From positions 62,001-126,000 of the forward strand of contig NIVC01000819.1 in the NCBI GenBank assembly GCA_002269645.1: DNA of 64,000 bases, read 5' to 3'. A program made the translations under genes and the position numbers. This stretch comes from Macrostomum lignano. Taxonomy: Eukaryota. Positions 5,128-47,904 of the stretch are shown here, piece after piece (position 1 is the first letter of the stretch; every line of letters begins with the position of its first letter). The notes under the pieces are model-generated. The model had not been told where the DNA came from. It searched no databases and saw only the letters and a program-made list of their open reading frames with translations.

Positions 5128-5252
5128 TTTTTTCTCTAAAATAAAAAAAAATTTTTGAGGGTGACCACCCTGATAGAAAAGTTGAACTGTTTCTACATCC
5201 TATAAGTAGCGCTAGGTTTATGAAGCTGGATAAAGTGGGGTTTTAAACCTCA

Positions 5253-5711: not shown

Positions 5712-5727
5712 TTTTTATTTTAATATT

Positions 5728-6765
5728 TTAATTAATTTCCGTGTCAGCTGGTATCACTAGGAGTTCAGCTCTAGTGAATGACCGCGTGGGGGATTTAGGG
5801 TTAAAGGCCTGAGATAAAAAGTAATAGTCACTGGAGTCGGAGGTAAAATGTCTGTCTATTTTATGTACATCAAGGCTGAAGTATGGATCTGTAGCTCTTC
5901 TTTTGGTGTCTTTCTCTAGCTCTCCAGGTAGATATAAAAAGCGTAGAAACTCAGAGTTTGTCAGTATGTATGGTGATTCAACTCCTGGAAGCTTAGGGTA
6001 GTTCGAGGTGTGTTTTGTGTTGTGTGTGTTGTGTGGGGTTGTCGTGTTGTTGTCTGTTTTATGAGATGACTTAAGTTCGACAGTGTCTTGTTTAATTGCA
6101 TGGGACGGTTTCAATCCAGTCATACGTGTGACTTCATTGTTCAGTTGCTCTATAACAGTGGGGAGCCGGTCTGTCCATTTTGAATAGTACTGACCACTTT
6201 TTAGTTTCAGCTCCTCAGCTGTCTGCTTAGTGAATAGCCTCTTGGCTAGAGTTAGATTGAATCTCTCAACGTACGCTTGGTCTCTGTGCAAGTTTGTTCT
6301 GCCATAGCGAATCTCTGTATTGTGCTTTTCCATAAGGGATTTCACTGCACCCATGAATTCCTTACCCGGGTCGGTCATGAAAATTTCAGGGTAACTAAGG
6401 GGTGAGTTTTTATAAATATCTTGCAGTGCGCTGGCAACAACCTCTGACTTCTTCGTGTTGAGTGGGCGAGCTTCCTTATATCTGGAAGCAACGTCTGTAA
6501 TTGTAAGAGCATACTTGTAGCCCGAGTCATTGGGGAGAAACAAAAGATCTGCTTTTTGCGCTTCATTAGGTTTATAGATGCTAAAGTGAGGTCTTGTAAA
6601 TTTTACTGGTGGGAAATAGACTTGAAAGACAGCCTGCTTAGAGAGCCACTTTTCTACTCTAGCTTTTGGTTCCTTGCTTAGTTCTGCGAGTTTGGTGACT
6701 GCATTTTTTCCTACAAAGAATCCTTTGTCGCTGTAGTAGAGTTTTTTAAGTTTCTGATCTGTCAT
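5728..6765 (-). CDS. Copy A retroviral-type (rve) DDE integrase
   Basis: 345 aa with ADLLFL...TDPGKEF...VERFNLTL giving the DDE triad, as in Polinton integrases. Confidence 0.95.
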   Translation of the reverse strand: MTDQKLKKLYYSDKGFFVGKNAVTKLAELSKEPKARVEKWLSKQAVFQVYFPPVKFTRPHFSIYKPNEAQKADLLFLPNDSGYKYALTITDVASRYKEARPLNTKKSEVVASALQDIYKNSPLSYPEIFMTDPGKEFMGAVKSLMEKHNTEIRYGRTNLHRDQAYVERFNLTLAKRLFTKQTAEELKLKSGQYYSKWTDRLPTVIEQLNNEVTRMTGLKPSHAIKQDTVELKSSHKTDNNTTTPHNTHNTKHTSNYPKLPGVESPYILTNSEFLRFLYLPGELEKDTKRRATDPYFSLDVHKIDRHFTSDSSDYYFLSQAFNPKSPTRSFTRAELLVIPADTEIN

Positions 6766-6796
6766 TTTTTTTTAAAATAAAATTTAAAATAAAATA

Positions 6797-7267
6797 ATGC
6801 AACACTCTGGTGGTAAGTTAGATTCACATGGACTGATAGAAAAGCTTCCTCATCCAAACAAAGGCTGGACACTTCCCGGCTATAAATATTGCGGGCCTTT
6901 GAATCCACTTGAAGTACAGTTAGATAAAAACAATAATCCAAATCCTGGGCATGAGCCTGTGAACGAGCTAGACTCTGTCTGCATGTGGCATGACATCAAG
7001 TATAGAGATTTTCCTGAGGAGAAGAATCGGTGGGACAAAGAAATGCTTAAGAGACTAGACAATATAGGGGCTTCAAGCGGATTTCGTGAGTCGATCGCTC
7101 GGAAGCTAGTTAAAGCTGTTATTTTTGGTAAGTCTAAGTTGGGGTTGGGGGTGTGCGGCGGGGGTGGGTGCACAGGGAGAGAGGGCGGGGTGGGCTTTGT
7201 ACTGCACGCGCCAAGGAAAAAAGTAGGAGTTCTGCTGAAAGAGCTGGGGGTTGAGAGAGCAGAATGA
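6797..7267 (+). CDS. Copy A protein with parvovirus VP1u-type phospholipase A2 domain
   Basis: LPGYKYCGPLN Ca-loop, EPVNELD and HDIKY catalytic motif. Confidence 0.88.
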   Translation: MQHSGGKLDSHGLIEKLPHPNKGWTLPGYKYCGPLNPLEVQLDKNNNPNPGHEPVNELDSVCMWHDIKYRDFPEEKNRWDKEMLKRLDNIGASSGFRESIARKLVKAVIFGKSKLGLGVCGGGGCTGREGGVGFVLHAPRKKVGVLLKELGVERAE

Positions 7268-7544
7268 TTCAAGCAAGAATATTCAGCTCATTCTTTTGAG
7301 AGACAACTGGAAACATTTTTAGAGAAATTATTTTTTTCGGAGGATGAGCACCCTGGGTTTAGGTAATTAAAGTCTTTGGGATCTGGTTTCGCGAATTGAA
7401 TGATCGACTTTACTACATGTACCAAATTAAAGGAAGACTTCCAAAATTGATATTAATAATTAACTATTATAAAACAATATATTTGAAATTAAATAAGATA
7501 AAAATTTAAATTAAGAGAAATACCGAGAATTTTCAGTGTAGTTA

Positions 7545-7800
7545 TAGAAAAATCGCAACTTTTCCTGATCGTTCAGGATTTTTATTCAGGATTTTTTTTC
7601 AGACATTAACATTACTAACTACTAACAGTAGAAAAATCGCAACTTTTCCTGATCGTTCAGGATTTTTATTCAGGATTTTTTTTTCAGACATTAACATTAC
7701 TAACTACTAGCTAACAGTAGAAAAATCGCAACTTTTCCTGATCGTTCAGGATTTTTATTCAGGATTTGTTAGTTCCTGAAGTAGCAGTAGAAAAATCTTA
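7545..7800. repeat. Three ~84-89-bp direct repeats with CCTGA-TCGT-TCAGG hairpin cores
   Basis: ATCGCAACTTTTCCTGATCGTTCAGG starts at 7552, 7636 and 7725. A partial fourth unit lies at ~7785. Confidence 0.9.
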
Positions 7801-7861
7801 ACTTAACATTCAAGAGTAAATAAAATAAATAATGTTACTCATCTACTACCGAAGCGTTATT

Positions 7862-8675
7862 CTATTCCATATTTGTTTCGTCCAACAGATCGTCATCTTC
7901 TTCTCCTTCAAATACAATCTCCAAATCAACCTCTAGTTTCGAACAAAAATTGTCGTCTTGGTCGGCTTCTTTTTCGATCGTTTTCTTAAACGCTAACAAC
8001 GTCTCCATTGAGTATCCAGTCAACGCCAGATTAGGATATTTTCTCATAAGATTATGGAATGTGAATAGCCGCTCGGCAAACTTTATCCCAATGTCCAACC
8101 GCTTGGCCGCCACTTCTGTGCTCACCCCTAGTTGATTTTTCAGTTCGGCCTGAACTTCAGCCTGCTTTTTCCTGGCCAAACAGCTAAGTGTTTCTATCTC
8201 GGCGATGAACATTTCAAGGGTGTTGAATTGCAGTCGTTTGCCGTCCACATCAGCTTGAACAGGTTCCATACAAAGATTTTTAGCCTCGGAGAACCTAAAG
8301 GAAAGAATATTGGATCACATTGTGAATAAGGTCAAAGGTTTGCTTGCAAAAATATCCAATCTATGTCCAATTTCTAAAAATAAGCAAGACTTACCTCGTT
8401 TTAATCACCAGCTGTTCGTTTTTTATTGAATTAATTTTTTGCTTCAAGCGAGCTAAAAACCGAGCTTTCCGGTCTTCTTTATCTTGAGTACAAGATTTCT
8501 CTTTCTCCGAACGCTCTTTTCTTATAGAATTTACGTCTACTTTTTGTAAAATTTTTAAAAGTAAAGCTCTTTCGTGATCTTCTAGATTAGCAATGGCGAT
8601 TGCCGTACTGGCGGAATCTTTACTACTAATACTCCTTAGCGTATTCAGAATTTTTACAGCGTCGCTGGAACTCAT
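7862..8675 (-). CDS. Copy A accessory ORF-X, predicted spliced (exons 8675-8395 and 8294-7862; ~237 aa)
   Basis: ORF 8391-8675 ends at AG|GTAAGT. An acceptor TCTTTCCTTTAG at 8295 restores phase 2 and reads in frame (RFSEAKNLC) into ORF 7862-8269. The intron is 100 bp. Confidence 0.65.
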
Positions 8676-9184
8676 GACGAGGCGGAGCGGACCCTGCCGG
8701 CGGGGTAGGCGGGCTGGGGCGAGGGGCGGTGTGAATCGGCTGTTTATATACCATTGGTGTGGGCTCGGGAATCCATGGATTCTCTTTTTATTCTAGAATA
8801 TTCTAGAATAAGGGAAACCCACAGATTTTCTACTTATAGCCAGTATTTTCTATTAATGGTTGATTGGGGTTGCCTGGGAAAACGGACGGGTTATGTAAAG
8901 AACTAGGAAGACTACTGAAAGAGTTGGGGGGGGGGGGTTGAGAAGGTTGGGGGTTTAAACAAGGAACTAAATGGGCGTTTCTGAAGCTAGGCAAGGGATC
9001 CTTTGAGCTAGTTAAGGCTTGAGCTGGGCAAGCTTTTTCTCTATGCTGCACACGCCACTCGCGCTATGATAAGAAACAGCTGCCATACCCATTCCGCTAT
9101 CACCCACCCACCACACAGCAAAATACCATGCGTAAAAATATCTATTAATGCAGTCTTAGTCTTAAAGCGTTTTGTAGCGACATT

Positions 9185-9502
9185 CTACAATTGCCTAATG
9201 ATTTCTGCAAAGTTATAGTAGCTGTCGTAATCTTTTACGTAGGTTACTCCGTACTTATGAAACCAGTGTCTTTGAAGAGCTAGATTAATATTAGGGACAT
9301 TGATATCAACATCGGGCCAATATTTTCTCATGTACTCGCTGCATTCTAGTTTGCATCGGTACTTGGATTTGTACAATGGATGAGGCTGAGTATAATAAGA
9401 ACCTGGAGAGACAACTGGAAACATTTTTAGAGAAAATTTAGATTTTTTCAAAGGGTAAGGACCCTGCGCTGATGATTTAAAGTCTTTGGGATGTGGTAGC
9501 AC
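9185..9502 (-). CDS. Small TIR-associated ORF of unknown function (copy A)
   Basis: Homologous to 41259-41522, with conserved MFPVVSPGSYY, YKSKYRCKLECSEYMRKYWP and DSYYNFAE. Confidence 0.6.
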   Translation of the reverse strand: MLPHPKDFKSSAQGPYPLKKSKFSLKMFPVVSPGSYYTQPHPLYKSKYRCKLECSEYMRKYWPDVDINVPNINLALQRHWFHKYGVTYVKDYDSYYNFAEIIRQL

Positions 9503-9890
9503 GTTGCGGATTGAATTTGGGGAGAAGAATGCAGATTATTTTCTGATTGTTTCGAAGATGCTATGGGTGGATGTCAGTGGATTATGTCTGTGTCAATGAA
9601 CATAACAGGTGTTAGTGGACATCTGTTATGCACTGGTTCTGTCAGGGATAATATGGATGGATTTAATACGATTATGTTCGAAGTTTTCGGAGCAAGTGCG
9701 ACCCCTCCACTTTTTCATGATTCTGTCGGGGATAATATGGATGGATTTAATGGGATTATGGAGGACGTTTTGTGAGCGAGTGCGACCCCCCTTTTTTTTC
9801 TGATTCTGTCAGGGATAGTATGAATGGATTTAATGGGATTATGGAGGACGTGAAAAATTTTGTCCCAGAAGCCCCCTCATGCCTTCTACT
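9300..9890. repeat. Terminal inverted repeat region of copy A
   Basis: Homologous to copy B TIRs. It contains three GATTCTGTC(A/G)GGGATAATATGGATGGATTTAAT-like subrepeats. The inner boundary cannot be defined without the other end. Confidence 0.8.
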
Positions 9891-10775
9891 CACCCACATC
9901 ATTGTCTAAGCCAACTTTGGCCGAAAAGGATCAAGGGGCCCTGGCGGAAGAAACATTCTGTCTTATACAAGGTCTACAGGACGTCATGCAGGACGTGGAC
10001 GCTCCATTGTGGTTTAATTGGACCCAGGGGTTCTAACAGTGTCTGAAGCTGTTTTCAAATGCACATTTTGGCATGCAATGTAGCGGATATTATAAACCAT
10101 TAATTATTCTCAATTGCTACGGAACTTCGCCAACCAATTCAGGAGAGAAGTCCATCGCAAGGGCAGCGTGAGTTTCTCAAATACAATCTCATATTTCTGG
10201 TTGGGCTCAGCTGATTCAACGCAGATCAACCAACTGTGTGACACGTCTTCGAGCTTGCTGTATTTTCATACTCGCGATGTTCCAATCGCAATTCCTCTTG
10301 GCTGACTGTAGGCTGCGCTGAAACGATGAATGTCAAATGCCAGAGAGCTGTACCAGTGGATGCGCCGGAACTGTAAACCTGCTGTTTACTCAAATGAATA
10401 TAATCCACTGTGAGCTCACACGTCAGCTGGGAGTCCAGACAGACACACGATACCTGACTCTGAACAAGCCAGCGTCAGGAATTTCCAAAGTCCGGAGTCA
10501 AAAAGCATTGTGAATTTCGACTGAGCTCGAATCCGGCCAGGCATTTAACTAAGGCAGTTAAATGGTGAGTAATGTCTGCTCAGCTGAGTAGCATATTCTA
10601 GTAGTTCTGCAGAATTCGCATCCAACAGGTTCAGTGTAGAATTTATTGTAGATAAAGGAATGATACACCATTTTAAAGGCTGGGTAACATATGTTATAAT
10701 GACAAAATCAAGTCATTACCTGCAGTTATCTCCAATCTGCACTGGCAATGCATTCAGCTGGGCTTATGTGCTTCA

Positions 10776-11453
<678 letters not shown>

Positions 11454-12010
11454 TTAAGTTGGCCGGATTGCTATTGTGAAGTTTCACGGACCCGAGGGCT
11501 GGATGGAGAGACTTCGCGAGCCGCGACTCCTGCTGTAAAGCATACACAGTGCACTGCTGGTTTCTTCTCTATATCAGATATTGCTCTGGCTTTTTCTTGT
11601 CGCGAGAAGATTCCTTAGAGTCTAGTTGTTCTCAGAGCCAGTGAACTAGAAAGCAGATATCGACAGACTCTCTAGTCCAGAGCACCATATGAACAAGCTT
11701 TTGAGAAAATTCCAATGCTGGCAGGGCACCGCATTGGCAGGAAGATGCGACTCTTCGTGGCTTTTCTGTTTTTTTCCCTTTTTCATTGAAGTGAATTTTT
11801 TTCTAAGTTTAGCTGCTCTGCGCTCTTTGAAGACTCGAAATTGAGAGTACGGAATGACCTGGCAACTGATTCCTATGGTACTCTCACAAGCACTGGGCCG
11901 TTTTTGCTTTCTTGTCTTTGCCATTACACAGTGGCCGTACTGAATAGAATTGTGGGACCAGTCAGCAAGATATACAAAAATTCAAGACACATGTATATGC
12001 ATGTCAGTCA

Positions 12011-12350
12011 GGGGGACATAGCCTAGAGGTCTGGCGCGGAGCTCTGATGTGCCAGCGGCCCAGGCTCGATTCCGAGTGCAGTCAAATTCATTTCGGGCTA
12101 AATTGGAATATCGGCTTGGCCCCGCTCGTGCAATTAACGCCCTTGAGGCCCAACCCCCAAGGCGCAGTGAAGTGTACATGCTTAACGATAAATAAAGTTA
12201 GGGCCACTGTACACTCCTGTGTGAGTGTGTGCCTGTGTGTATGACTGCGTACGTATCCGCGCGCTTGTGTGTCTGCTCAGGGGAGTCGGCGGAATGGGCA
12301 GCAATGCCTTTCGCCGGTTGTGCGACAAAGTGGCTTAATAAAGTGCATGT
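12011..12350 (+). mobile_element. tRNA-related SINE family B copy
   Basis: Near-identical to 22505-22864 and to the reverse of 50995-51358. It has a B-box-like GGCTCGATTCC. Confidence 0.75.
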
Positions 12351-12890: not shown

Positions 12891-13140
12891 GGGGACTGTA
12901 GCCTAGTGGTTAGAGCGTCGGACTCGCGACTCAAAGGTCGGGGGATCGATTCTTGGCAATTTTTCCTTGAGCAGATACTTAACTCTCTGCATTGCTTCAG
13001 TTCACTCAGCTGTAAAATGGGTGCCAGCATTAGCTGGGGTAATTGAGGGTGTGTGTGGCGACCCGCCAGTCCTTGGACTGAACAGGACGCAGCCTTTAGA
13101 TGCGCCGCGCAATAGCTGCGGCTGAGCTGTCGGCTGCGGG
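12891..13140 (+). mobile_element. tRNA-derived SINE family A copy with CORE-like central domain
   Basis: A box TAGCCTAGTGG, B-box-like GGATCGATTC, and ...CTTAACTCT...CTTCAGTT...CTGTAAAATGGG resembling the CORE-SINE domain. Other copies lie at 26381-26669, 50008-50310 and ~20362-20462. Confidence 0.8.
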
Positions 13141-19613: not shown

Positions 19614-22270
19614 TCAAGGCGACGCCAGAAGGAATTCGTGCCGCAGCAGCTCCTGGGCGGTGGGGCGGCTCGCCGGCTCGCGCCGCAGGCAGGTCGCGTA
19701 GAACTCGGCCGCCGGTTCGGAGAAGCCCTGCGGCAGAGCCGGAGGCTCCGGCGAGCCGCGACCGATGGCGAACACGGCGGCCAGGGGCGGCATGTCCGAG
19801 TAGGGCGGCAGCGTGGTGGCCATCTCGAGCAGCGTGCAGCCGATGGCCCAGCAGTCCGACTTCAGCTGCTGACCGTCGCCGTCTCTGGCAGCCGCGGTTG
19901 CAGCGCCGCCGCCGAACGCAAGCACGAGCTCCGGGGCCAACCAGTAGGGCGTGCCGTTCAGCGAGGCCGCGTCCAACGAGGCGGCGGCTGCCAGAGCCGG
20001 GGGTTGATCACCGCCCCCACTGCCGCCGCCAAGGTGTTGGTGCAGCCGGCGGGAGCAGCCGAAGTCGATCAGTTTGACAACTCCCGCGTCCGACACCATG
20101 ATGTTGTGGCCCTGCGGGTGTGCTGGGAGCTGTAAATCAGGGCGACAGTCAGCCCGCAGCCAGCGAGGAGGCATCAGTCAGACCCATTCCGCTGACCCCC
20201 TGAGCACTACTCAATTCTCAGACTGCCAAAATCTTCCAAGGATGCAACAATATGCTACTGAAATGTCATAACAGTTTAAATAGTACTATACGAGTATGAC
20301 AAATTTGGGTTTTTTCAGTAATCTTCGGTTAGCTTGATTTTGCTATTAGTAACCTACCTATTAATAGGCAGTTGTGAAATCCACAGCTCAGCCGCAGCCA
20401 TTGCGCGGCGTATCTGAAGGCTGCGAACGGCTGTTCAGTCCAAGGACTGGGAGGTCGCCAAGTTGCTAAGCACTAGGCGACAAATCTCAATTTGTTTATA
20501 AAATAAATTGAGAATTCTGCTTAACACTTTTCTATGATTAGTTTAAATGACACATTTGTAACTCGAAGAAAGACCCGGATCTTCTTACCTTGATGTCTCC
20601 GTGCAGGATGCCGTTCTGGTGCAGGAAGGCCAGCCCGCTGACTGCCTGGCCCAGGTAGCCGCGGCACTGCCGCTCGGTCAGGGCGCCGAAGCGGTCCAGC
20701 AGACTGCGGATGCTGCCGCCAGGCACCAGCTCCATGGCGATGTGAAATTCTCCGTCAGACTCTCGGGTGCCGAACAACTGTACGATGTTCGGGTGGCTCA
20801 TGCAGCTCAGGATGTCCACTTCTCGCCGGATTCGGCGGAGCTCGGCTGCGCAGTCGACAAAGACTCGTTTGACAGCGATGATGCGACCGCAGTCGGTGAG
20901 GCCCTGGTGTACGCTGCCGTAGCTGCCGCGGCCCAGCAGGGGACCCTGGCGCCACTGCAGCAGTGAGTCGCTGCTGGCCAGGTCTTTGTTGCTACTGTCG
21001 CTTGATGGTTTGAGGTCTCTGTTGCTACTGTCGCCTGATGGTTTGAGGTCTTTGTTGTTACTTTCGCCTGATGGTTTGAGGTCTTTGTTGCTGCTTTCGC
21101 CTGATGGTTTGAGGTCTTTGTTGCTGCTTTCGTCTGATGGTTTGAGGTCCTTGTTGTGACTTTCGTATGATGGTTTGAGGTCTTTGTTGCTGCTTGCGCC
21201 TGATGGTTTGAAGTCTTTGTTGTGACTTTCGTATGATGATTTGAGGTCTTTGTTGCTGCTTTCGTCTGATGGTTTGAGGTGCTTGTTGTGACTTTCGTAT
21301 GATGGTTTGAGGTCTTTGTTGCTGCTTGCGCCTGATGGTTTGAAGTCTTTGTTGTGACTTTCGTGTGATGATTTGAGGTCTTTGTTGTTGCTTTCGTTTG
21401 ATGATTGGAGGTCTTTGTTGCTAGTGGCGTTTTGCGCAATCAACCTATTTAAGGAAATCACACGTGTTGAGTGTCGATCAGCTACTCTAATAATTCCAAA
21501 GCAGTTTAAATCTTCGAGAGTTACGTTGAAACAGACAGAAAAGTCGCAACAAATCTGTGCCTGACAAAAAATGCTAGGATAACCGATAAAAGTAATATAG
21601 TGGTGATTCTTTCGTGGACGCTTGCCTCTATTTGCTCGCTAATGGAGGCAGAGAGGATTTTACATAAAAGTTTAAATTACAGAGGATATTTACCATTCAG
21701 GCATATTCACCTTTCAACTCCCGTTGCCACAGCGTTGCTACCCAGCAGAGCCGAACTCGACTCTGGACTCGGCGCAATTTTTGACTTCTCCGCCGGCTTT
21801 TTCAGTGGCGATTTTGTCGCTCCGTTTTTGCGCCTCTTCTGCAGAAAGTCTTTCACGGCGGCTCGGTGCTCTGCCGCTTGCTGCGTGGCTGCCGTGTCTG
21901 GGTGTCCCGCGACGGGACCACAGCGAGGCAGCTTCTTGGGGCCGGAGATGGCGGCGGGCATCGAGGTTGCGGCGGAGGTGGAGGCGGAGGCGGGGTGCTC
22001 GCTTGATGATGACGCAATTTCTCCAGCAGTAGCAGGCGAGTCGGATGGCAACTGTAGAGTAAGTGACATGGCGGGTCGGTCGGATGGCAACTGTAGAAAA
22101 AGTGACATGGCGGGTCGGATGGCAACTGTAGGAAAAGTGACATGGCGGGTAGGATGGCAACTGTGGGATAAGTGACATGGTGGGTCGGATGGCAACTGTA
22201 GGATAAGTGACATGTTGGAGCTGGGACATTCATTTTTGTCGTTTAGAGTTTGCAGAGTGCCATTTTCCAA
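19614..22270 (-). CDS. MAP3K19/YSK4-like STE-family Ser/Thr kinase (exons ~22280-21711, 21444-20589, 20111-19614; 5' end incomplete)
   Basis: LGRGSYGSV, IAVK, MELVPGGSI, HGDIK|GHNIM, KLIDFGCSRRL, GTPYWLAPE and KSDCWAIGCT. Both introns are GT-AG and phase-matched. Confidence 0.85.
20990..21420. repeat. 33-bp coding tandem repeat (SNKDLKPSGES) upstream of the kinase domain
   Basis: About 12 units, in frame with the kinase exon. Confidence 0.9.
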
Positions 22271-22504: not shown

Positions 22505-22864
22505 GGGGCTGTAGCTCCAGGTCCAGCGCAATGCTCTGATGTGCCAGCGGCCCAGGCTCGATTCCAAGTGCAGTCACATTAATTTGGGGCTAAATTGGAT
22601 TCTCGGCTTGGCTCTGCTCGTGCAATTAACGCCCTTGAGGGCCAACCCCGAGGCACAGTGAAGTGTACATGCCTAACGAGAAATAAAGTTACGGTCGCTG
22701 TACACTCCTGTGTGAGTGTGTGCCTGTGTGTATGACTGCGTACGTATCCGCGCGCTTGTGTGCCTGCTCAGGGGAGTCAAAGGAATCGGCAGTAATGCCT
22801 CTCGCCGGTTGCGTGACAATGTCGCTTAAAGTGCGCTAGGGTGCACACAGTCCCTTGCCTCTAA
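22505..22864 (+). mobile_element. SINE family B copy whose tail is the insertion target of Polinton copy B
   Basis: The intact copy at ~51000 ends ...GCCTCTAATAA. Here GCCTCTAA is followed by the Polinton, and CTCTAATAA resumes at 41868. Confidence 0.8.
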
Positions 22865-23348
22865 AGTAGAAGGCATGAGGGGGCTTCTGGGACAAAATTT
22901 TTCACGTCCTCCATAATCCACCTAAATCCATCCATATTATCCCCGACAGAATCAGAAAAAAAGGGGGGTCGCACTCGCTCACAAAACGTCCTCCATAATC
23001 CCATTAAATCTATCCATATTATCCCTGACAGAATCAGAGCAGGTGTCCACTGATACCTGTTATGTTCACTGACACTGACATCCACCCATAACATTTCTAA
23101 AACAATCAGAAAATAATCTGCATTCTTCTCCCCATGGGGCCCACATTCAATCCGCAACGTGCTACCACATCCCTAAGACTTTAAATCATCAGCGCAGGGT
23201 CCTCACCCTTTGAAAAAATCTAAATTCTCAATAAAAATGTTTCCAGTTGTCTCTCCAGGTTCTTATTACAAAACGCACGAGCCTAATTACAAATCCAAGT
23301 ACCGATGCAAACTTGAATGCAGCGAGTACATGAGAAAATATTGGCCCG
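22865..23348 (+). repeat. Left TIR of copy B
   Basis: Reverse complement of 41384-41867. Confidence 0.95.
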
Positions 23349-23363
23349 GCATGGATATCAATG

Positions 23364-25572
23364 GAGGGTTCATCGGAAGTCAGAGTTTAAGGCTACCGCC
23401 GCTCGTGTCAAAGGCCATTGCCTTAAACTCTGACTTCCGATGAGCATCATTGCTTAAAATTTCAAAACTCTTACGTAATCTACGCACTTTATGTACACTA
23501 TCGTGAATTCTTATCAGTCGATGCTTCTAAGGGGGTTTGAGATAAGGTTACCTCCACCTCGCCTATGTCTCACCTTTAAGTCGCGCACCTGAAGTCACCC
23601 ACCCCTTACTCTGCACCCACCCCTAAATTAATTACAAATATAAATATTTGCGTGTCTAGAGATCAAATCTCAGATAGAGAAAAGCGGACGGCTGCAGAGA
23701 TGGAGGCACCGCTCATTAATTGGAAGCATTTGCCCTGCAGTGAGCTGGGCAACGTGACTAAGGACGAATTGAATTTTGTTTCGGAGGCTTCTTACAATGA
23801 CAGAAGGGACGACGAGTTCGCTAGATTTCTCGAATTCATTCAAAAGGAGCCCGAGCCCGATGAGCATCTGCCGCTCCTGCAGGAAGGCGGCGTAGATATC
23901 AGCGCCATGGACATCGCCGAGATTGACAGCCTACCAGCAGACAGCAGGAAGCAGATGATCAGCCATGGACAGCGGTTCAGGACATTCCTCACAGAGGAAA
24001 ATCTTCAGCGCAATTTACAAACCATTCCGAATTCGGTGCTCAACCAATACATTCGCTACTTCTACTTTAAACTGAAGAAGATTGACGGCGAACCTTACTC
24101 GCCCGCATCGCTGGTGTGCATCAGGGCTGGACTGCAGCGCTATTTGCGGATGATCGAGAAGCTAACCGTTGACATCATCAATGGAGAAGACTTTTCTTCT
24201 GCAAATAGCATGCTGCGTGTGAAGGTTCGAGACTTTCACCAGAGTGGTGGGAGGACGCAGCAGTTTGAGCCAATCGAGGAGGGGGACATGAGGAAGCTGA
24301 TGATCTACTTCCAAGGCAGCACAGCTGAAGTTGAGCAGGACAAATTCTTATTCTACATCATATACAGCTTTGGCGAGCGAGGCCAGGAGCACCTCAAGTT
24401 CTTGAAGGATAGAAGCTCACTTCAATTGCACGTCGACTCTGATGGAAAGCCGTACTACTGTCTGCCTCCGTTGCCCTCGAAAAATAAGTCAGCAGATCCA
24501 GAGAAGGCCAAGAAGCAGCCGGACAACAAGCAGGCCAGAATTTACGACGTGGAAAAGGTGGAGAAATACCTCAAGCTGCTTCCAGTTACAACGAAGGACA
24601 ACAATCTGTTTCCTCGTCCTTTGGCCAGCCGCAACGATGGAGGCCCTGTTTTCTCCTCGAAGCAGAACCGTGGAGAGAATTATCTGAGTGGCTTCATGAG
24701 AAACTTGAGTACGAAGGCGGGACTTGCGAAGACCTACACGAATCATTGCATTCGGTAAGACTGATAAATTAATAATAGTAACTTTAATTATGTTATGATA
24801 CATGTTATGTTACCAGTTACTCATGAATCCAACTATATAAATTTGCACTCTAAAACAGGGTCACGCGAATATGCGATCTCGAGGCGGCAGGGCACAGCAT
24901 GAGCGATATAATGAGCATTACTGGACAGCTGAGCGAGCGAACGACTAGGAGGTACCTAGCCAAGCGTCGCGACCGGTCGCTTCAAAAGACGAGTGAGTCT
25001 GTTCAGGTGGCGTTGAATCGTCATGATCTAGAGCAAGAAGCTGGGCCACCCGAACATGCTGATGCTGTTGAGATTGTCGGTGAGACTGCAGTATCGACGG
25101 AGGTTAGTGTTAGCACTGAAGCTGCCTATTCTGTTGGTACGAAGTTTGCCTTCAACAATTGCACCTTTCACGGATGTTCCTTTAATTAGGCATGCAATCT
25201 TTACTTCTACAGGAATCAGCAAATTGTACTCGTAGAATTACTGAAAGAATAAGAACGACAGTCTAGTTTAATATTTTTTATTTAATGACTTTTAGTACTT
25301 TGCTCGACCAGTATGATGTTCATCACCGACAAAAATTTACATGATATACTGACACCAGCTGTGCTTTTTGTACTGTCGATTTTGCAATTCTTGTGCCAGT
25401 TTAATTATTTACATCTTAAAATAAACGTTTTGAATTGACTGGTGCAAAATATGCTTTGCAAGATGCTGGATAAAAACTGGCTTGAATTAATTGGTTGCAT
25501 TGGAATTGGAATTCTAGGCAATGGCCGGCCATTGCCATGGGTCATTGCCATGAGGAGAAATTTTGGGCAATG
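23364..25572 (+). mobile_element. Crypton-type tyrosine-recombinase transposon nested in the Polinton left arm
   Basis: Removing it restores GATATCAATGTCCCTAAT, the uninterrupted sequence at the other end. It is bounded by CAATG direct repeats (23359-23363 and 25568-25572) and has no TIRs. Confidence 0.85.
23700..25189 (+). CDS. DUF3504/Crypton-like tyrosine recombinase (exons 23700-24754 and 24859-25189; ~461 aa)
   Basis: LKKIDGEPYSPASL..IRAGLQRYL, FGERGQE, YTNHCIR, then after a 104-bp GT-AG intron VTRICDLEAAGHSMSDIMSITGQLSERTTRRYL. This gives the R...HxxR...(H>Q)...Y set. Confidence 0.88.
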
Positions 25573-25689
25573 TCCCTAATATTAATCAAGCTCTCCAAAG
25601 ACACTGGTTTGAAAAACATGGAGTAACCTATGTAAAAGATTACGATAGCTATTATAACTTTGCAGAAATCATTAAGCAATTGTGATTTC

Positions 25690-26224
25690 TCACATTCTCT
25701 CAATGATCAACGTCAATACAAACTCTTCACCGTTGAAATCAACACCCACCCCATCTTCAGTCTCAAACTGTAGCACAATCTCGTGAATCTCCTTATTACT
25801 CAATACAACTCTTTTCACTGGATTTGGTTTCTCTACCACCATCTGTCCTCCAGCTACAGAGTTGGAGATGTTGTACAAAATATTAGTTCGCTTTCCCTTA
25901 AATACCCAATCAAGACTGAGATTAGTTCTGATTAGAATATTCAAACCCTTTACAATGTCTGCTATATTGGGTGCTAAGAACAAACCGCGTACACTTTCCC
26001 GGGCCATGATAACGGCCCCCGTCGCTTGAGTGGCGGTCCGCGCCGCGGATTCTGCCTTATAAACTTTCTTCTCGAATCCTAATTCCCTATACCAAGTGTC
26101 ATCTTTAAACTCAACCTCCGCATTTTTGTGAACTTGCATGACCACTCTCATTACAGTGAGATCATAGGATAGTTTGACAGGGAACAGTTTTTTATCTGGC
26201 TTACTCGCATCAGGTGTCTCGAAA
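25690..26224 (-). pseudogene. 5'-truncated divergent second minor capsid (penton) gene
   Basis: Open frame homologous to the C-terminal ~60% of 40340-41197 (FETPDASKPDKKLFPVKLSYDLTVMRV...LTLIIERM). Homology stops abruptly at ~26224. Confidence 0.85.
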
Positions 26225-26380
26225 TATAAGCCGAAACATTAAATTCTGCATTATCTAATAATAAATCAGCACATGGACAAACTCATCTAAATTAAATATC
26301 AGCAAAGCTGGTTTGAAGATTGTGTCTGTCACTTTTTATTTAGAAGAATGAGTAAATAGCATATCATAATTAATAAATTG

Positions 26381-26669
26381 ATAATTGATTACCAATGGGC
26401 AGATGTGCAACCGACAGCTCAGCCGCAGCTATTGCGCAGCTCATCTGAAGGCTGCTACGGCTGTTCAGTCCAAGGACTGGGGGGTCGCCATACACACACC
26501 CTCAATTACTCCAGCCAATGCTGGCACCCATTTTACAGCTGGGTGAACTGAAGCAATGCGGAGTAAAGTTCCTTGCTCAAGGACACAAATTGTTGCAGTG
26601 GGATCGGGAATCGAACCCCCCGACCTTCAAGTCGTGAGTCCGACGCCCTAACCACTAGGCTACAACCCC
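26381..26669 (-). mobile_element. SINE family A copy inside Polinton copy B
   Basis: tRNA-like head with TAGCCTAGTGG and GGTTCGATTCC. The body matches 12891-13140. Confidence 0.85.
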
Positions 26670-26729
26670 TACAGCAGGTGGGGTTGTAGTATATCATAAA
26701 TAACATGTCACACACAGCTGGTACCAGAA

Positions 26730-27150
26730 TAGGAAAAATTTCAACGCGTTAGCCTTTTCTGGCCAATCGAACGCAAGCTAGAGCGTGCGTAAAATACAAA
26801 AATATTTATATACAAAATATACAAAATATACAAAATATACAAAAATATACAAAAATATACAAAATATACAGAATATACAAAAATATTTAACAAAAAAATA
26901 ATTGCTCTTGCAATAGGAAAAAATGCCAACGCGTTGGCTTTTTCTGACCAATCCGAAGCAGGCTAGCGCTTTCTATAAAAAATTCTTTCTTTTGCTTTTG
27001 CAATAGGAAAAAATGCCAACGCGTTGGCTTTTTCTGACCAATCCGAAGCAGGCTAGCGCTTTCTATAAAAAATTCTTTCTTTTGCTCTTGCAATAGGAAA
27101 AAATGCCAACGCGTTGGTTTTTTTTCTGACCAATCCGAAGCAGGCTAGAG
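26730..27150. repeat. Three exact-period 90-bp direct repeats with palindromic CCAACGCGTTGG cores, plus one degenerate copy and an (AAAATATAC)n tract
   Basis: Cores start at 26926, 27016 and 27106. A degenerate core TCAACGCGTTAG lies at ~26741. Confidence 0.92.
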
Positions 27151-27158
27151 TGTCTTTT

Positions 27159-27842
27159 TCAAACAAGTTGCTTCCATGACTGATCATCCTCAAGGATTTC
27201 AACTAATATTGACATATTAGCATTCAGATCACGAAGCGGCAGGGAGACTTGCTTAAGACCAGGGTATTCACTTTCCAGCTTGAATAACTTCATATAAAGA
27301 TTGGCCGACGAAACCTTGAGGTTTACTTTATCGAGAAGATAGTCAAAATTCTGTTTTCGGGCCTTTCTATCGTAGTTTTTGTTACCGTTTTTAAATGTCA
27401 ACAAAATTTTTCCACATTGGATCGCATGAAGCAGACCACTCTTCTGCGACCTTTTCAGACGAAGCAGAGCGCACTGCAGACGCTTTACCACATCACCGCC
27501 TTCATCATCGGAAGGTATCCCAACATCCGCTTGGGGAATTCGTGAGGCGGTGAGCTTCTGTTTGAAGTCTTCTTTGCGCTTAGCTCGCCGCTCTGCATTA
27601 AGCGCCGCCATGCGATCACTCGCCTCCTTCTTCTGCTGCCGCGTTAGAGTTAGGACTTCCATTTGCAGCGAATCTTCCTTGAGCCCGAAAAATCTGGCGA
27701 TCTTTTGTCTTTTCTCCGCAGCTCTAACTGGATCCTTGATTTCTGCTAAAGTCTCAGATAAGACCTCGCATAGTCTCTGTTTCGCTGTTTCGCCAGACAG
27801 GTTTAAACACCAATCAACATCCATAGATGAACTAGAAGCCAT
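27159..27842 (-). CDS. Copy B accessory ORF-X, 227 aa, putative helical DNA-binding protein (DUF3102-like, tentative)
   Basis: Intact ORF. AIQCGKILL.FK...F..LL..V.LKVSSANLYMKLF recalls the DUF3102 pattern from memory, unverified. It has patchy similarity to copy A ORF-X. Confidence 0.7.
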   Translation of the reverse strand: MASSSSMDVDWCLNLSGETAKQRLCEVLSETLAEIKDPVRAAEKRQKIARFFGLKEDSLQMEVLTLTRQQKKEASDRMAALNAERRAKRKEDFKQKLTASRIPQADVGIPSDDEGGDVVKRLQCALLRLKRSQKSGLLHAIQCGKILLTFKNGNKNYDRKARKQNFDYLLDKVNLKVSSANLYMKLFKLESEYPGLKQVSLPLRDLNANMSILVEILEDDQSWKQLV

Positions 27843-28230
27843 TACGGTTTCGGTCGAGCAGCAGAAGCGTAAAGTAGTTGCACATAAAAAACTATAATCT
27901 GTCGCTTCTGTTTCTCAGTGCACAATGCGTGTGAAGATATAGAGAGCTAAAAATCGTTTTCAAATGTACATGCGCTTGTATCTACGCGAAATTTCTGTTA
28001 CTAGCTGTTGCGTTCGATCGATTAAGCCACCCACCCGCTGCTCTACACAAGCACCTAACACCAGCAAAGCGAGCTAAGACTCCCAAGCTCACTCTTTCCT
28101 TTCCTAAGATTGTATGGACAAAATTCCTAGCAATACATTCGCAAAAATCGATTTCCCAATTTTTAAAAATGCAGCTGCTGCGTTTGGCCAGGGCTGAGAA
28201 TAATACGCTCGTAGTTAAACCCTTCCCGAC

Positions 28231-28731
28231 TCAAACGTCTCTCTCTACCCCCAGCTCTTTCAGCAGTCTTCCTAGTACCTTGTGAGGTGCGCACAAAATA
28301 AACCCGGCTCCCGTGCGTTCGCCCTCTCTCCCCGTGCACTCGCCCTCTCTCCCCAAACACCCGCCCTCGGCGTACACCCCCAACCCCAGTTTTGTCTTAC
28401 TAAAAATAACAGCTTTAACTAGCTTCCGAGCGATCGACTCCTTCCACCCGCTTGAAGCCCCTATATTGTCTAGTCTCTTAAGCATTTCTTTGTCCCAGCG
28501 ATTCTTCTCCTCAGGAAAATCTCTATACTTAACGTCGTGCCACATGCAGACAGAGTCTAGCTCGTTCACAGGCTCATGCCCAGGATGTGGATTATTGTTT
28601 TTATCTAGCTGTATTTCAAGTGGATTCAAAGGCCCGCAATATTTATAGCCGGGAAGTGTCCAGCCTTTGTTCGGATGAGGAAGCTTTTCTATCAGTCCAT
28701 GTGAATCTAACTTACCACCAGAGCGCTGCAT
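28231..28731 (-). CDS. Copy B parvovirus-type PLA2-domain protein (166 aa from MQRSGG)
   Basis: LPGYKYCGPLN, EPVNELD and HDVKY. Confidence 0.88.
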   Translation of the reverse strand: MQRSGGKLDSHGLIEKLPHPNKGWTLPGYKYCGPLNPLEIQLDKNNNPHPGHEPVNELDSVCMWHDVKYRDFPEEKNRWDKEMLKRLDNIGASSGWKESIARKLVKAVIFSKTKLGLGVYAEGGCLGREGECTGREGERTGAGFILCAPHKVLGRLLKELGVERDV

Positions 28732-28761
28732 TATTTTATTTAAAATTTTCTTTTTAAATAA

Positions 28762-29799
28762 ATGACAGATCAGAAACTTAAAAAACTCTACTACAGCGAC
28801 AAAGGTTTCTTTGTAGGCAAAAATGCCGTTAGTAAACTCATGGAGCTGAGTAAGGAACCAAAAGCTACAGTAGAAAAATGGCTCTCTAAGCAGGCTGTCT
28901 TTCAAGTCTATTTCCCACCAGTAAAATTTGAAAGGCCCCATTTCAGTATTTATAAACCTAATGAAGCGCACCAAGCAGATCTTTTGTTTCTCCCCAATGA
29001 CTCAGGCTACAAGTATGCTCTCACAGTAATAGACATTGCTTCCAGATATAAGGAAGCTCGCCCACTCAAGACGAAGAAGTCAGAGGTTGTTGCCAGCGCA
29101 CTGCAAGATATTTATAAAAACTCTCCGCTCACATACCCCCAAATCTTTATGACCGACCCGGGTAAGGAATTCATGGGTGTAGTGAAATCCCTTATGGAAA
29201 AGAAAAACACAGAGATTCGCTATGGCAGAACAAACTTGCACAGAGACCAGGCTTTTGTGGAAAGATTCAATCTAACTCTAGCCAAGAGACTATTCACTAA
29301 GCAGACAGCGCAAGAACTCAAACTGAGTGCGGGGCAATACTATACCAAGTGGACAGAAAGACTCCCCATTGTTATAGAGCAACTGAACAATGAAGTCACA
29401 CGTATGACTGGATTGAAACCGTCCCATGCAATTAAACAAGACACTGTCAAACTTAAGGCAACTCAAAGAACAGACAACAATACTACAACCCCACACAACA
29501 CACACAACACAAAACACACCTCGAACTACCCTCAGCTTCCAGGAGTTGAATCACCATACATACTGACAAACTCTGAGTTTCTACGCTTTTTATATCTACC
29601 TGGAGAGCTAGAGAAAGACACCAAAAGAAGAGCTACAGATCCATACTTCAGCCTTGATGTACATAAAATAGACAGACATTTTACATCCGACTCTGGAGAG
29701 TATTACTTTTTATCTCAAGCCTTTAACCCTAAATCCCCCACGCGGTCATTCACTAGAGCTGAACTCCTAGTGATACCAGCTGACACAGAAATTAATTAA
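28762..29799 (+). CDS. Copy B retroviral-type DDE integrase
   Basis: HQADLLFL, TDPGKEF and VERFN; intact 345 aa. Confidence 0.95.
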   Translation: MTDQKLKKLYYSDKGFFVGKNAVSKLMELSKEPKATVEKWLSKQAVFQVYFPPVKFERPHFSIYKPNEAHQADLLFLPNDSGYKYALTVIDIASRYKEARPLKTKKSEVVASALQDIYKNSPLTYPQIFMTDPGKEFMGVVKSLMEKKNTEIRYGRTNLHRDQAFVERFNLTLAKRLFTKQTAQELKLSAGQYYTKWTERLPIVIEQLNNEVTRMTGLKPSHAIKQDTVKLKATQRTDNNTTTPHNTHNTKHTSNYPQLPGVESPYILTNSEFLRFLYLPGELEKDTKRRATDPYFSLDVHKIDRHFTSDSGEYYFLSQAFNPKSPTRSFTRAELLVIPADTEIN

Positions 29800-29816
29800 A
29801 ATATTAAAATAAAAAA

Positions 29817-30272
29817 ATGACAAAGATTGAAACCAGAACCATCAATAAACTCAATAAAATCATTGAATCAAAGAGACCAGGTCTTATATCAATAAAAGGT
29901 GCCAAAGTAAAAGTCGATCCCGTGCAGCAAATAGTTCAGTGTAATGAGCAAAGACACAGCATCACAGATGAAAAGTTAGGAGGAATCCTACCATTAGCAG
30001 CTCTTATCCCGATTATTGCAGGCGCTGTAAGTGCCGCAGGTGGTGTAGCTGGAGGTGTAGCAACTGCTGTTAAAGCTGGTAATGATAGAGCCCACCAGCT
30101 TGAATTGCAAAAGATTGCAAGAGACAAAGGTATAACAATTAAGGCAGGAGAGGGCTGCCCCGATTGTGATGATCGTGATGATTGTGAGCATGAAAATTCT
30201 GTAAGCAAGTCTGACATTGTCAAAGCTATCATGACACTGCACAATGCTGGGTTTACAATAATGCGGATGTGA
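29817..30272 (+). CDS. 151-aa probable virion core/membrane-active precursor
   Basis: LGG|ILPLAALIPIIAGAVSAAGGVA segment; intact in both copies. Confidence 0.85.
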   Translation: MTKIETRTINKLNKIIESKRPGLISIKGAKVKVDPVQQIVQCNEQRHSITDEKLGGILPLAALIPIIAGAVSAAGGVAGGVATAVKAGNDRAHQLELQKIARDKGITIKAGEGCPDCDDRDDCEHENSVSKSDIVKAIMTLHNAGFTIMRM

Positions 30273-30396
30273 TGAGGTTTAAAACCCCACTTTATCCAGC
30301 TTCATAAACCTAGCGCTACTTATAGGATGTAGAAACAGTTCAACTTTTCTATCAGGGTGGTCACCCTCAAAAATTTTTTTTATTTTAGAGAAAAAA

Positions 30397-33300
30397 ATGC
30401 CAAAAGCTAATCCAGCAAAAGATTTAGTCAACAAACATTTTTCAAAAGGCGTCTCATTTCAAGACAAAAGTAATTTACTAAGAGAAGCATGTAAACAAAA
30501 GTTTAACACCGACCCTGGTCACCTGGGAAGCTATGAAAAACAGTTGGAAATCATCAATCAATTAGAATCCAACCAATATGCGCCTATGCAAAATCCTGCA
30601 AAGGAACACCAAGAGAGGAGTCGCAACTTAGTTAACAAATATGAAACTCTTACTGGTGAAAAAGCAAAGTACCCACAAAATAAGCAGGAACAAGAGAAAT
30701 TAGAGCAATTAATCCATTTAAAAGAGTCGGAGCTTGCCATTGAAGAGATTAATTTTGCACAGAGGAAGTTTACAGAACATTACATAGAGTACACAATCCC
30801 AATTAACGACACCAACGGTACCACCGCAAACATCTACGACTATAAAGACAGCATCCAATCAGTTGTTGATCACACACTCAAAACACGCAAGACTTTTAAA
30901 CTACAGATATCATTCAAGATTGCGTTTTATATGCCTGCGAAACCCACTGAGCATCTCGAGTATTACATGACAACAAAGGCAAAGCCATTCACCCCAACAG
31001 ACACACTGGATCCTTTCCTTCAAGATGTCACTAAGAAAATTGAAGCGTTTACATCCAGAGGTTCCGGATGGGTCGTAGGAGGGATTCAAAGAGCGACTGT
31101 CATGGTCATGAAATATGACCCACTTAAAGCCTCCTCTTATATAGAGCTCCCGCATAAGCTAGCCGGCAAAAAAGCTTGCATAAATGTTAAAAATAAAGAC
31201 AATTGCTGTGCTCTATGGGCAGTTCTTTCTGCACTTTTTAGTGTACCTCACCACCCCGAAAGAACCTCAAATTATCAAAATTATTTCAAGTACTATCTCA
31301 TCGAATGCGAAAAGAAGGGAATCAGGTTTGACAAAGGAGGCTTGGCGATCTCTCAGATCCCAAAGCTAGAAGAAGTGTTTAATAACAAAATTAGAATCAC
31401 AGTCTTTGAGTGGAGTGAAAAAACTGAGAAAGTTCAACCGGTCAGATGTAGCAAAGACGTTTTAGATCCCGAGGGGAAAAGGCGGACTGAAGTGGATCTT
31501 CTAGTGATTGGTAATTTACTAGAGGAGGCTCACTATGTTTGGGTTAGAGATCTTTCAAGACTCATTCACAAGCAGTTGAATAATCATCACGAGGCTGTTG
31601 CCATCTGCCGCTTGTGCCTTAAGCATTACAGTGGACCTGAACGCTTTGAAAAGCTAACAGAGCATGAATTATCATGCGAGGATCACCCGACAAACTGCTC
31701 TCTTCCTTCAGCTGAAGAGAAGTATCTCCGTTTTAAGAACTATCACAAGATGGAGAAGCTCCCATTTGTTGTATATGCTGATTTCGAATGCTCAATCACT
31801 CCAACTCAAAAACATGTCCCCAACTCAGTAGCATATGCCTTTATTACTACAAAAGGACTTGTTGAGTATAATTATTTCTTTGGAGAGCAGTGTGTGGAGC
31901 AGTTTATTGCCAGAATGTTAGAGTTGCAAAGAGTAATTAGCACCCTTCAACCTGTTCCAATAAGTATGTCTGAGGAGGATGAAAGCAATTTCCTATCAGC
32001 AACTCATTGCCACATCTGCAGGAAACATTTAACTTGCACTAATATTAAAAACCCGACCGTTAGGGACCACTGCCACTTTACTGGGAAATTTAGAGGTGCA
32101 GCGCATAACACCTGTAATCTAAAGCTAAAATCGAACATTCATGATCTAACGATATTTTGTCACAACGCAAAGAACTATGACATGCATTTAATAGTTGAAA
32201 AAATCGGCATGATTCCAGACATACACCTTGATTGCATCGCAGAGAACAAGGAGAAGTTTAAGTGTGTTGATATTAAACAGGATAATTCGGGTAAAGGTGA
32301 AGGTTCGGGTACAGGTAAAATAAGACTGAAGGATTCATATCAATTTCTAGCTGCCAGTCTAGACGAACTAAGCAAGAATCTAAAAGATGAACAATGTACA
32401 TATACAAAGATGTTTGCAAGTAAAATTACAACAGTGATGAATCATTTAAACTCCTGAGAACCAAAGGCTTCTACCCTATGAAAATATTACTGGGTATCAC
32501 GTATTTGAAGAAGGTTTACCACCACAGGAGAAGTTCTTTTCAAAGCTAACAGACTCTGGAATCTCTGACAAAGACTATGAGCACGCGAAGCATGTCTATA
32601 ATTACTTTAATTGTCAAAACTTCTTCCAGTATCACCTGCTTTACCTCTACACAGATGTGTTTCTGCTGGCTGATGTGTTTGAAACCTTCAGATACACCTG
32701 GTACACAGCATATGGCCTCGATCCAGCACATTATGTGTCTCTGCCTGCCACTAGCTGGGAATCTTTGCTTAAAATGAAATGGGATCAAGATCCAGATTGG
32801 TACATTGAACTTCTTACAGACATTGACATGTACAATTTTGTCGAATCGTCAAAGCGAGGGGGATCTCAATTTGCGTTAACAGGTATGCAAAAGCAAACAA
32901 TCCCTACATTGAATCTTACAATAAGGAGCAGCCCTCAAACTACATTACTTACTTGGACGCTAATAATCTCTACGGGTGGGCGATGAGTCAAGATCTTCCA
33001 GTTAGAGATTTTCGATGGCTACCCTCATCAGAATTCAAAGGGACTTTTCATTGGCTGCCATTTATGAGGTTGATGTTTACATTCCACCAGAGCTTCACGA
33101 CTATTTCTCTGACTTTCCACCCTTCCCAGAGAACATCAAGTGCCCGAAAATAATCGAAACTCCCAATGATAATAATGGAACTTGGCACCTGTCAGGAACA
33201 GAAAAAGAACATACAGAGAAGCTAACACAGAATCTAAACAACAAGACACGTTACAAAATCCATTACAAACTGCTTCAGTATTTTATCTCACTTGGTTGCA

Positions 33301-34229
33301 GGGTCACTAAAGTTCACCGGGCTCTTACATTTACAGAGGAAGCGTGGATGAAACCCTACATTGATAAGAACACCCAGTTTAGGACCAAAGCAACCAACGA
33401 CTTTGACAAGAACCTCTTTAAGTTAGCCAACAACTCTGTCTATGGCAAGACTCTTGAGAATGAGCGGAAAAGAACAAACCTGAAACTTGTTACCTCATCA
33501 GAGCCTGCTGTTATTCAGGCAAATATGTCAAAGCCAACATTCAAAGAACTCCATATCTTTAATAGCTACTTAGGTGTGATCATATTTTACAAAACCAAGG
33601 TGACGCTGCGCAAGCCGATCTATACAGGTGTCACTGTTCTCGACGAATCAAAACGTCTGATGTACCAATTCTTCTATGGCATGAAGCAGCAGTACAAGGA
33701 TAAAATGAAACTCTTGTACACCGACACAGACAGTTTTATTATGGACATTCAAACAGAAGACATTTATCAGGACATGCTGCAGCAAAAAGATTTGTTTGAC
33801 TTGTCTGAGTATGATGAATCTTGCAGGACACAGAATGGCGATCAAGTGTTTGACGCCACTAACAAGAAAGTGATTGGGAAAATGAAGGACGAGATTGCTG
33901 GTGACATAATCACTGAATTCATTGGGTTGAGAGCAAAGTCCTATTTTATAAAATGTGAGTCGTCAGACCCAATTAAAAAATCAAAGGGAATTCCGAAACG
34001 TGTGGTTAGGAAGGAAATTAATGAAGCTGAATACAGAGACGCCTTGAATTGCAACAAAAAGACATCACATGAGTTCTCAAAGCTACAATCTAAAAACCAT
34101 ATTATTCACACAATTCAGCAAAAGAAGATTGGACTGTCAGGTGCAGATAACAAAAGATTCATTTTTGATGACAACATTAACAGTCTACCGTTCGGGCACT
34201 GGAGATTAGGTTTAGGAGGTGGAGGTTAG
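30397..34229 (+). CDS. Copy B protein-primed DNA polymerase B with Zn-finger/endonuclease VII-like insert; four -1 frameshifts as assembled
   Basis: Motifs as in copy A. Frame breaks lie at ~32424, ~32474, ~32860 and ~33040. Conceptual repair gives ...KGFYPYE...LLADVFETFR...RGGIS...YLDANNLYG...YTDTDS. Confidence 0.93.
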
Positions 34230-34335
34230 ATTCGGGCACTGGAGGTTAGACTCGGGCACTGGAGATTAGGAGATTAGGAGATTGGGTTTAGGTTTAAGAG
34301 AAAGTTTAATAAACCTCATAAAAAATGACATAAAA

Positions 34336-47230: not shown

Positions 47231-47330
47231 GGTTTTCCAAAATAGATCCTCCGTGCAAAATTAAACTTCTCTTAGTCTAGCCTAGCCAAAATATCTTCAC
47301 CTGCAGACACCGGAACGGCAGCTGCACTCA

Positions 47331-47861: not shown

Positions 47862-47904
47862 TCAGGTTGGAGTTCTTGCTTCGGCTCAGTGCTAATCCAG
47901 GTCC

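Follow-up and report, generated by a model that had tools for sequence, protein, structure and literature searches.

Within the Macrostomum lignano genome, a 2.2 kb insert with a tyrosine recombinase gene splits a reading frame in one arm of a Polinton, which raises the questions of what the insert is, whether it travels with its virus-like host and by what reaction it moves. The window analysed here is the whole stretch of 64,000 nucleotides around it (GenBank assembly GCA_002269645.1, contig NIVC01000819.1, positions 62,001 to 126,000 of the forward strand), and the features discussed are collected in Table 1. A first-pass annotation had described the insert as an intron-containing Crypton nested in a Polinton arm, and all of its statements about the sequence held on re-checking. 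Though the nesting had been prominent in that description, it is ordinary, and the novelty lies in the structure of the ends of the element.

Table 1. Positions in the window of the Crypton, its recombinase gene, its end structures and its host
Feature	Position	Strand	Remarks
Host Polinton, adintovirus-like gene set	22865..41867		6 bp duplication CTCTAA; inverted arms
Crypton element, family A	23359..25572, core to core	+	Copies 94–100 % identical share both end points
Left crossover core O (CAATG), target-derived	23359..23363	+	Left cores compared at 32 loci
Left terminal hairpin	23359..23452	+	Perfect 24 bp arms 23370–23393 and 23420–23443; loop inverted, 24 bp deletion
Inner core I' (CATTG at 23416), right hairpin arm	23413..23422	+	Partner I deleted here; solo modules end at I
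O' (CATTG) and arm L	23448..23462	+	Complementary to the element's right end
Tyrosine recombinase exon 1	23700..24754	+	R in FGERG, H-x-x-R in NHCIR
GT-AG intron, 104 nt	24755..24858	+	Removed in contigs from runs X3 and X14
Exon 2, to stop codon	24859..25189	+	TGQ and catalytic Tyr
Subterminal palindrome, 20 bp	25517..25536	+	Imperfect in family B
Right end R, core CAATG at 25568	25558..25572	+	Unchanged in 27 exact copies
Uninterrupted target core, opposite Polinton arm	41369..41373	-	Inside 78-codon frame 41495–41259

The insert is a young Crypton

The insert is a real and young Crypton DNA transposon. A DNA search of the same genome gave at least 105 matches, from 40 scored candidates, and 27 exact right ends were located at 18 loci with unrelated flanks. 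The bodies of 24 copies differ by 0–5.8 %, the youngest by 0–0.6 %. Other genomic copies thus exist, and many near-identical copies at unrelated sites bear out the proposal of a young Crypton with a 5 bp crossover core. CAATG stands at both junctions (23359 and 25568), as first noted, and provides the 4–6 bp direct repeat looked for in a Crypton, with one of the two cores derived from the target. The pre-insertion site is indeed visible, both in the opposite Polinton arm (41369–41373) and in a neighbouring Polinton copy (9298–9302). When the left core O was compared at 32 loci, selected with an AATG-like anchor, its first base was C in 25, T in 6 and A in 1, and one core read CATTG; right cores retain the element's own C.

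The sequence GGCCATTGCC was correctly placed near both ends (23413 and 25527), and its left occurrence is part of the left terminal hairpin. The palindrome noted at 25518 is present, but its true extent is 20 bp (25517–25536) and it is imperfect in a sister family. The two outer ends of the element are not inverted copies of each other; an inverted copy of the right end sits approximately 115 bp inside the left end. The statement that Cryptons have no TIRs is thus a poor fit to this lineage, where the left end is a long hairpin with the inverted copy of the right end inside. Cryptons have been described as lacking inverted repeats, and for those of animals no terminal repeats were found (PMC3212892 and PMC13465315, each in part).

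The element is most like the CryptonA side of the Cryptons (Goodwin 2003; Kojima and Jurka 2011), sharing a single gene, which contains an intron and encodes a tyrosine recombinase with the R, H-x-x-R and Y residues, a 5 bp core at both ends, non-autonomous derivatives, weak matches to the QRICH1 domain and DUF3504 in two distant homologues, though no subgroup is claimed. It differs in the long left hairpin, in the internal inverted copy of 13–24 bp of the right end, in the Q that replaces the second H and in a protein that does not match DUF3504. The recombinase (R-H-R-Y) is the sole gene in the 2.2 kb, and there is no reverse transcriptase; DIRS and Ngaro elements, which have a reverse transcriptase and split or inverted long repeats, were ruled out on these grounds, together with the retention of an intron.

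Further families were found at approximately 74, 57, 53 and 41–50 % protein identity among the 150 scored of 963 candidates from a protein search, and the stretches compared were 28 from family B, 32 from more distant families and then 10 more family B sites. One search pattern was dropped, as its 17 places (6 Cryptons, 11 unrelated) were not above the control (28).

Several further arrangements were seen at these loci. Cryptons of one family insert into the AATG motifs of another, in many cases at the inner core of a hairpin, and form clusters (L109 right end, L117, L120, L124, L098, L135, L141, L143 and also one metagenome contig). At L090 and L091, a family B right end is joined to an internal CAATG approximately 215 bp into another copy, giving a truncated tandem dimer. 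TCTATGG/CCATAGA recurs near both ends and in the flanks in many families (B–G, e.g. L049, L096, L110 and L120) and is possibly a binding site.

The recombinase gene, its intron and its product

The spliced recombinase ORF is intact, as reported, with exons 1 and 2 together encoding 461 aa. That length was attained in 11 of the 20 copies examined and 459 aa in one more, and the other eight are broken. The intron is 102–104 nt long in all 20, and its precise removal is seen in one contig each from runs X3 and X14, which come from two studies, among the contigs of eight runs, none of which is recorded as RNA. Because the intron is retained in the copies, movement does not include an RNA step. The family B intron has the same position as that of family A and a different sequence; the intron follows NHCIR or NHSIR in families A, B and D, and several related families (L108–L123) have no intron in the recombinase gene.

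The replacement of the usual TGH by TGQ is confirmed in this copy, but it is not an oddity. Nine of 12 family representatives have TGQ, two have TGH and one gave no match, and TGQ was rejected as a sign of decay since it is a trait of the lineage. The recommended HMM search with DUF3504 was unsuccessful for this copy: the two exons were scanned apart, with the homologue P0006 standing in for the whole spliced protein, and neither exon matched even at E 1. Two of nine homologues, both distant, matched DUF3504, one of them above the cut-off; matches to the QRICH1 domain were weak and below the cut-off, and homologues matched Phage_integrase weakly. The predicted model of P0006 (pLDDT 68, from an alignment of 10 sequences) best resembles Cre (E 6.5e-10, as against 3.4e-6 for IntI). 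The closest named proteins are from Macrostomum lignano and are 46–52 % identical. Judged from its sequence, the copy in the window may supply enzyme and is itself probably immobile, as its own hairpin has lost 24 bp.

The host Polinton is an ordinary target

The host is like Polintons and adintoviruses in its long inverted arms and 6 bp duplication, and it includes matches to an rve integrase, protease, A32 ATPase, jelly-roll capsid, PLA2 and protein X. A polymerase-like region is split over frames 30283–32457, 32450–32986 and 33006–34229, with a match below the cut-off, reflecting decay or assembly error. The identity of the arms does fail shortly before the insert, with 478 of 479 positions matching up to 23343 and differences at 23349, 23351 and 23353. 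Beyond the insert, the two arms agree at 89 of 114 positions, and the left arm agrees with the neighbouring Polinton copy at 100 of 111. As the arms diverge with or without the insert, it sits where they part anyway.

The first-pass annotation had proposed that the Crypton hitch-hikes in the Polinton, which would serve as a vehicle for its spread. In favour of this, the host is a young Polinton with a full set of structural genes. However, only one of the 18 Crypton loci lies in a Polinton arm, and the site occupied here has 303 exact empty occurrences and one filled; elsewhere the family has inserted into satellites, dispersed repeats and AATG motifs within other Cryptons, and the split of the polymerase-like region over three frames also counts against the proposal, which we regard as extremely unlikely. 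The same counts (one filled, 303 empty) establish that the recombinase is not a fixed part of this Polinton family. The nesting is likely to be one ordinary target event that occurred by chance. Though some Polinton-like viruses carry YREC integrases (PMC12220804, in part), the recombinase here is separate from the Polinton.

The surroundings of the insert include further repeats. Another Polinton from this family occupies 1–9890 in the opposite orientation, is 91–99 % alike and has its frame breaks elsewhere. Just inside the arms of the host are diverged inverted paralogous frames (25690–26238 and 40322–41197) with approximately 73–76 % DNA identity and no Pfam match. A repeat of approximately 290 bp, likely a SINE, is found at 26395–26690, within the Polinton, and also at 12897–13137, 20363–20460 and 50035–50311; its tRNA-like part (26599–26669, minus strand) gave the sole Rfam match, and ARAGORN found nothing. 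Another, of approximately 310 bp, is present at 12027–12338 and 22519–22829, in direct orientation and 10.5 kb apart, and at 51212–51329, and members of this repeat family are a Crypton target at two sites (L007, L011, L031 and L070). Long tandem arrays with units of 22–23, 25, 32 and 9 bp lie in 54031–64000, 45970–49300 and 10772–11500.

A conserved hairpin at the left end

The main feature of the element, overlooked in the first-pass annotation, is the hairpin at its left end. In the intact copies L003 and L004 the left end is a 118 nt imperfect hairpin. It opens with core O and a bulge, followed by a perfect stem of 32 bp that contains the inner core I. Next come an upper stem with bulges, two GA pairs and a loop of four bases, after which the sequence passes through I' and the partner arm to O' and arm L.

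Hairpins first came to light when the regions upstream of 32 distant genes were searched blindly for inverted repeats, and their folding z scores range from -8 to -21 against shuffles in six families. The stem sequences of families A–F and H are different, but all have a common apex on the top strand, GA-stem-c(GNA or GNNA)g-stem-GA, in which the stem is 4–6 bp and the loop is closed by C-G. The loops seen were GTA, GCA, GAA, GGTA, GCTA and GTTA, and none of the tetraloops is of the GNRA type. Among the copies fetched, the apex motif is present in seven of 12 family groups, and the other five have half an apex (three) or none (two). Four relatives from metagenomes share 28–32 % identity, and two of them (L133 and L135, 28–29 %) have a complete hairpin, in which the loop is GTTA, L134 has a hairpin remnant and L132, with only 168 bp of flank, has none. 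The motif occurs once in 2 Mb of random sequence and is absent from the remaining 61.7 kb of the window. In 10 apices, picked with the motif in view so that the compensation statistics lean towards it, both partners vary at nine of the 11 pairs, and pairing is kept in 93 % of cells, which was reached by none of 500 shuffles. By eye, the 5' arm is longer by 2 nt at the bulge beside core O in all six families scored. Some Eulor repeats are also described as hairpins.

When arm L was compared with the reverse complement of the right end in eight elements, the two sequences from one element agreed at 8–14 of 15 positions (mean 10.6), compared to 4.7 across families, and this self-match was equalled by one of 40,320 permutations. 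Because of this complementarity, the stem would run through the core if the two ends were joined. The structure is a hairpin of the type found in attC and CTX attP, namely imperfect, built around the core, conserved in shape and with unpaired bases. The computed energies of the top and bottom strands differ by a small gap, 0–8 kcal/mol, which counts against a preference for the folded top strand, in a model that leaves sheared GA pairs unscored. In DNA, a GNA loop with a closing C-G pair is unusually stable (PMC3201870, in part), and the title of a reference listed there counts d(cGNNAg) among the stable DNA tetraloops.

A hairpin of this kind might instead work at the RNA level, regulating or terminating the transcript of the recombinase gene, and take no part in the DNA reaction. 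RNA, too, forms stable tandem GA pairs, and the intron-free contigs extend into the right arm of the hairpin or beyond the right end of the element. However, the hairpin starts at the first base of the element and its base is the crossover core, its loops are of DNA types, with tetraloops that are never GNRA, the type preferred in RNA, and the intron kept in the copies indicates movement without an RNA step. A role confined to RNA is thus very unlikely.

In the published model (PMC3212892 and PMC13565253, both in part), a Crypton moves as a double-stranded circle by two strand exchanges, and the inverted repeats would then be arrays of sites for the recombinase or a host factor, with folding either incidental or an aid. 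GGCAATG-like motifs recurring at I, I', O', R and the right palindrome are consistent with such arrays, as is the predicted Cre-like fold of the recombinase, and inverted repeats L and R would co-vary equally as paired protein-binding sites in a duplex. However, binding sites have no need of compensated stems of at least 30 bp, a fixed bulge, GA pairs and GNA loops on one strand, and a costly hairpin has been kept although it is altered at 14 of 16 family A and nine of 26 family B loci. We consider the duplex circle an unlikely explanation for this lineage; rather, the substrate of the recombinase is likely to be one strand of the element in folded form instead of a plain duplex, with AATG cores as targets.

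A proposed folded single-stranded attachment site

A proposal that would accommodate these features is that a deep lineage of animal Cryptons transposes via a folded single-stranded attachment site and is the first eukaryotic counterpart of attC and CTX attP. In it, the right end of the same element, lying beyond the circle junction, would complete the stem of a strand-biased hairpin, and a single recombination would be finished by host replication. We give this reading a probability of approximately 0.55, slightly better than even.

The left hairpin would fold when the top strand becomes single-stranded, on the lagging strand or in a cruciform, with the GNA or GNNA loop and the GA pairs favouring folding of this strand. 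O' and L would then pair with the right end R and its core, and one strand exchange would yield a top-strand circle with the core in a bulged stem, as in attC or CTX attP. The 2 nt bulge would set the choice of strand. A single exchange with a (C/T)AATG target in duplex DNA, followed by host replication, would produce the insertion and the core duplication. No circle junction was found in the contigs of eight runs or in the assembly, though contigs drop rare forms and cannot show absence. According to a 2026 review (PMC13565253, in part), the mechanism of Cryptons lacks experimental demonstration and a double-stranded circle is assumed. As the ends and the core of this family are defined, its enzymes intact and some of its copies very young, and as its conserved structure is open to mutation and rescue, the question of mechanism is directly testable.

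The likeness to integron attC and the attP of phage CTX extends to an imperfect inverted repeat around a tyrosine recombinase core, unpaired bases and strand-skewed features, and the folded single-strand substrate known there is predicted here. In contrast to both, this element is eukaryotic, has its own enzyme, uses a loose 5 bp core as target and encodes a recombinase with a predicted fold closer to Cre than to IntI. Helitrons, Replitrons and the IS200/IS605 elements also have a terminal hairpin and likely a single-strand step, but they use HUH nucleases, whereas this element has only a tyrosine recombinase and duplicates its core.

CryptonF-1_cRei of Chlamydomonas likewise ends in a 5 bp motif and targets a near-identical one, but its core is CACCG/CAYCG and a hairpin is not mentioned in the available part of its description (PMC9977147). 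That element excises cleanly and gains copies (PMC9977147, in part), which would fit a single exchange followed by replication. No hairpin in a Crypton was found in the literature searched, which included PMC3212892 with its supplements, PMC13465315, PMC5753468, PMC11872487, PMC12220804 and a Starship preprint (10.64898/2026.09.21.753150), all in part; Repbase, Goodwin 2003, Poulter and Butler 2015 and the supplements of that preprint were beyond its scope. If the proposal is correct, recombination via a folded single strand extends beyond bacteria, copy gain alongside clean excision in Cryptons is explained and the apex motif becomes a marker for locating Crypton ends.

Loop inversion, scars and probable by-products of the hairpin

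At the 16 near-full loci of family A, scored by eye, two hairpins are whole, one is nearly whole and 13 are scarred, and the loop is in the standard orientation at six, inverted at six, mixed at one and unscorable at three. Family B, examined at 26 loci, has 15 whole hairpins in the standard orientation, two whole and inverted and nine scarred. Inverted loops were found at four of 20 family B loci, in copies that are 1–3 substitutions from the majority in 1.94 kb and have no common marker. All five whole copies of family E share one loop orientation, and in each of the 11 groups of sister copies from a single locus the orientation is uniform.

Scars are concentrated at the apex, and some of the inserts are copied from adjacent sequence, in a manner that we interpret as resembling repair by end joining. 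Sister copies with the same flank differ in damage (L083 is whole and L137 deleted, and L038/L048 differ from L040); hence much of the damage occurred after insertion. No scar is common to different loci, and damaged hairpins therefore seem not to found daughters. Two explanations for these changes were weakened: scarring at each insertion, because sister copies differ and the younger family has mostly whole hairpins, and loop inversion by the recombinase at the inner core, because family B has CAACG there and yielded no solo module among its matches, yet has inverted loops.

Both loop orientations arise as products at the ends of parvoviruses and poxviruses, which have hairpin-capped forms, and the hairpin could similarly be a signal for replication or resolution, with a cruciform converted to a hairpin-capped linear form, or a primer for the second strand. 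Both orientations are common in young copies (six versus six in family A, four of 20 in family B), and at L085 a fold-back duplication starts from the apex and has copied approximately 530 bp of host flank, as might be expected of such a signal. On the other hand, whole hairpins are mostly of one orientation (15 versus two in family B, five of five in family E), sister copies agree in it, damage also arose after insertion and no head-to-head or tail-to-tail dimers of the whole element were seen, making a replication signal improbable. With a folded attachment site, the inverted loops, scars and solo 34 bp modules look like side effects. The chromosomal hairpin would be fragile, its loops inverting and its centres breaking before end joining, and in family A the inner CAATG could serve as a second crossover point and leave 34 bp modules behind.

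Solo modules of this length, running from O and ending exactly at I, are present in AATG targets at four loci. Among 66 pattern matches for family B at the loci examined, none was a solo module (the left end of L077 lies outside its stretch). The tandem joint of 34 bp modules was also found in contigs of three runs. The hairpin appears to be a source of breaks in the host DNA, fold-back duplications and new tandem repeats.

Three related structures were observed. The 34 bp end modules form arrays of 13 (L031:2694–3140) and three (L043:1036–1142) identical units at one insertion site, the empty form of which is at position 22817 of the window, and these represent a minisatellite born from a transposon end. 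In L085, L128 and L129 (G000:C4035:18871–22365), the inverted duplication from a family B apex includes parts of the element as well as the host flank and has 100 % identity. The left end of L071 consists of six tandem 69 bp units, each combining the right arm of the hairpin with the beginning of the body.
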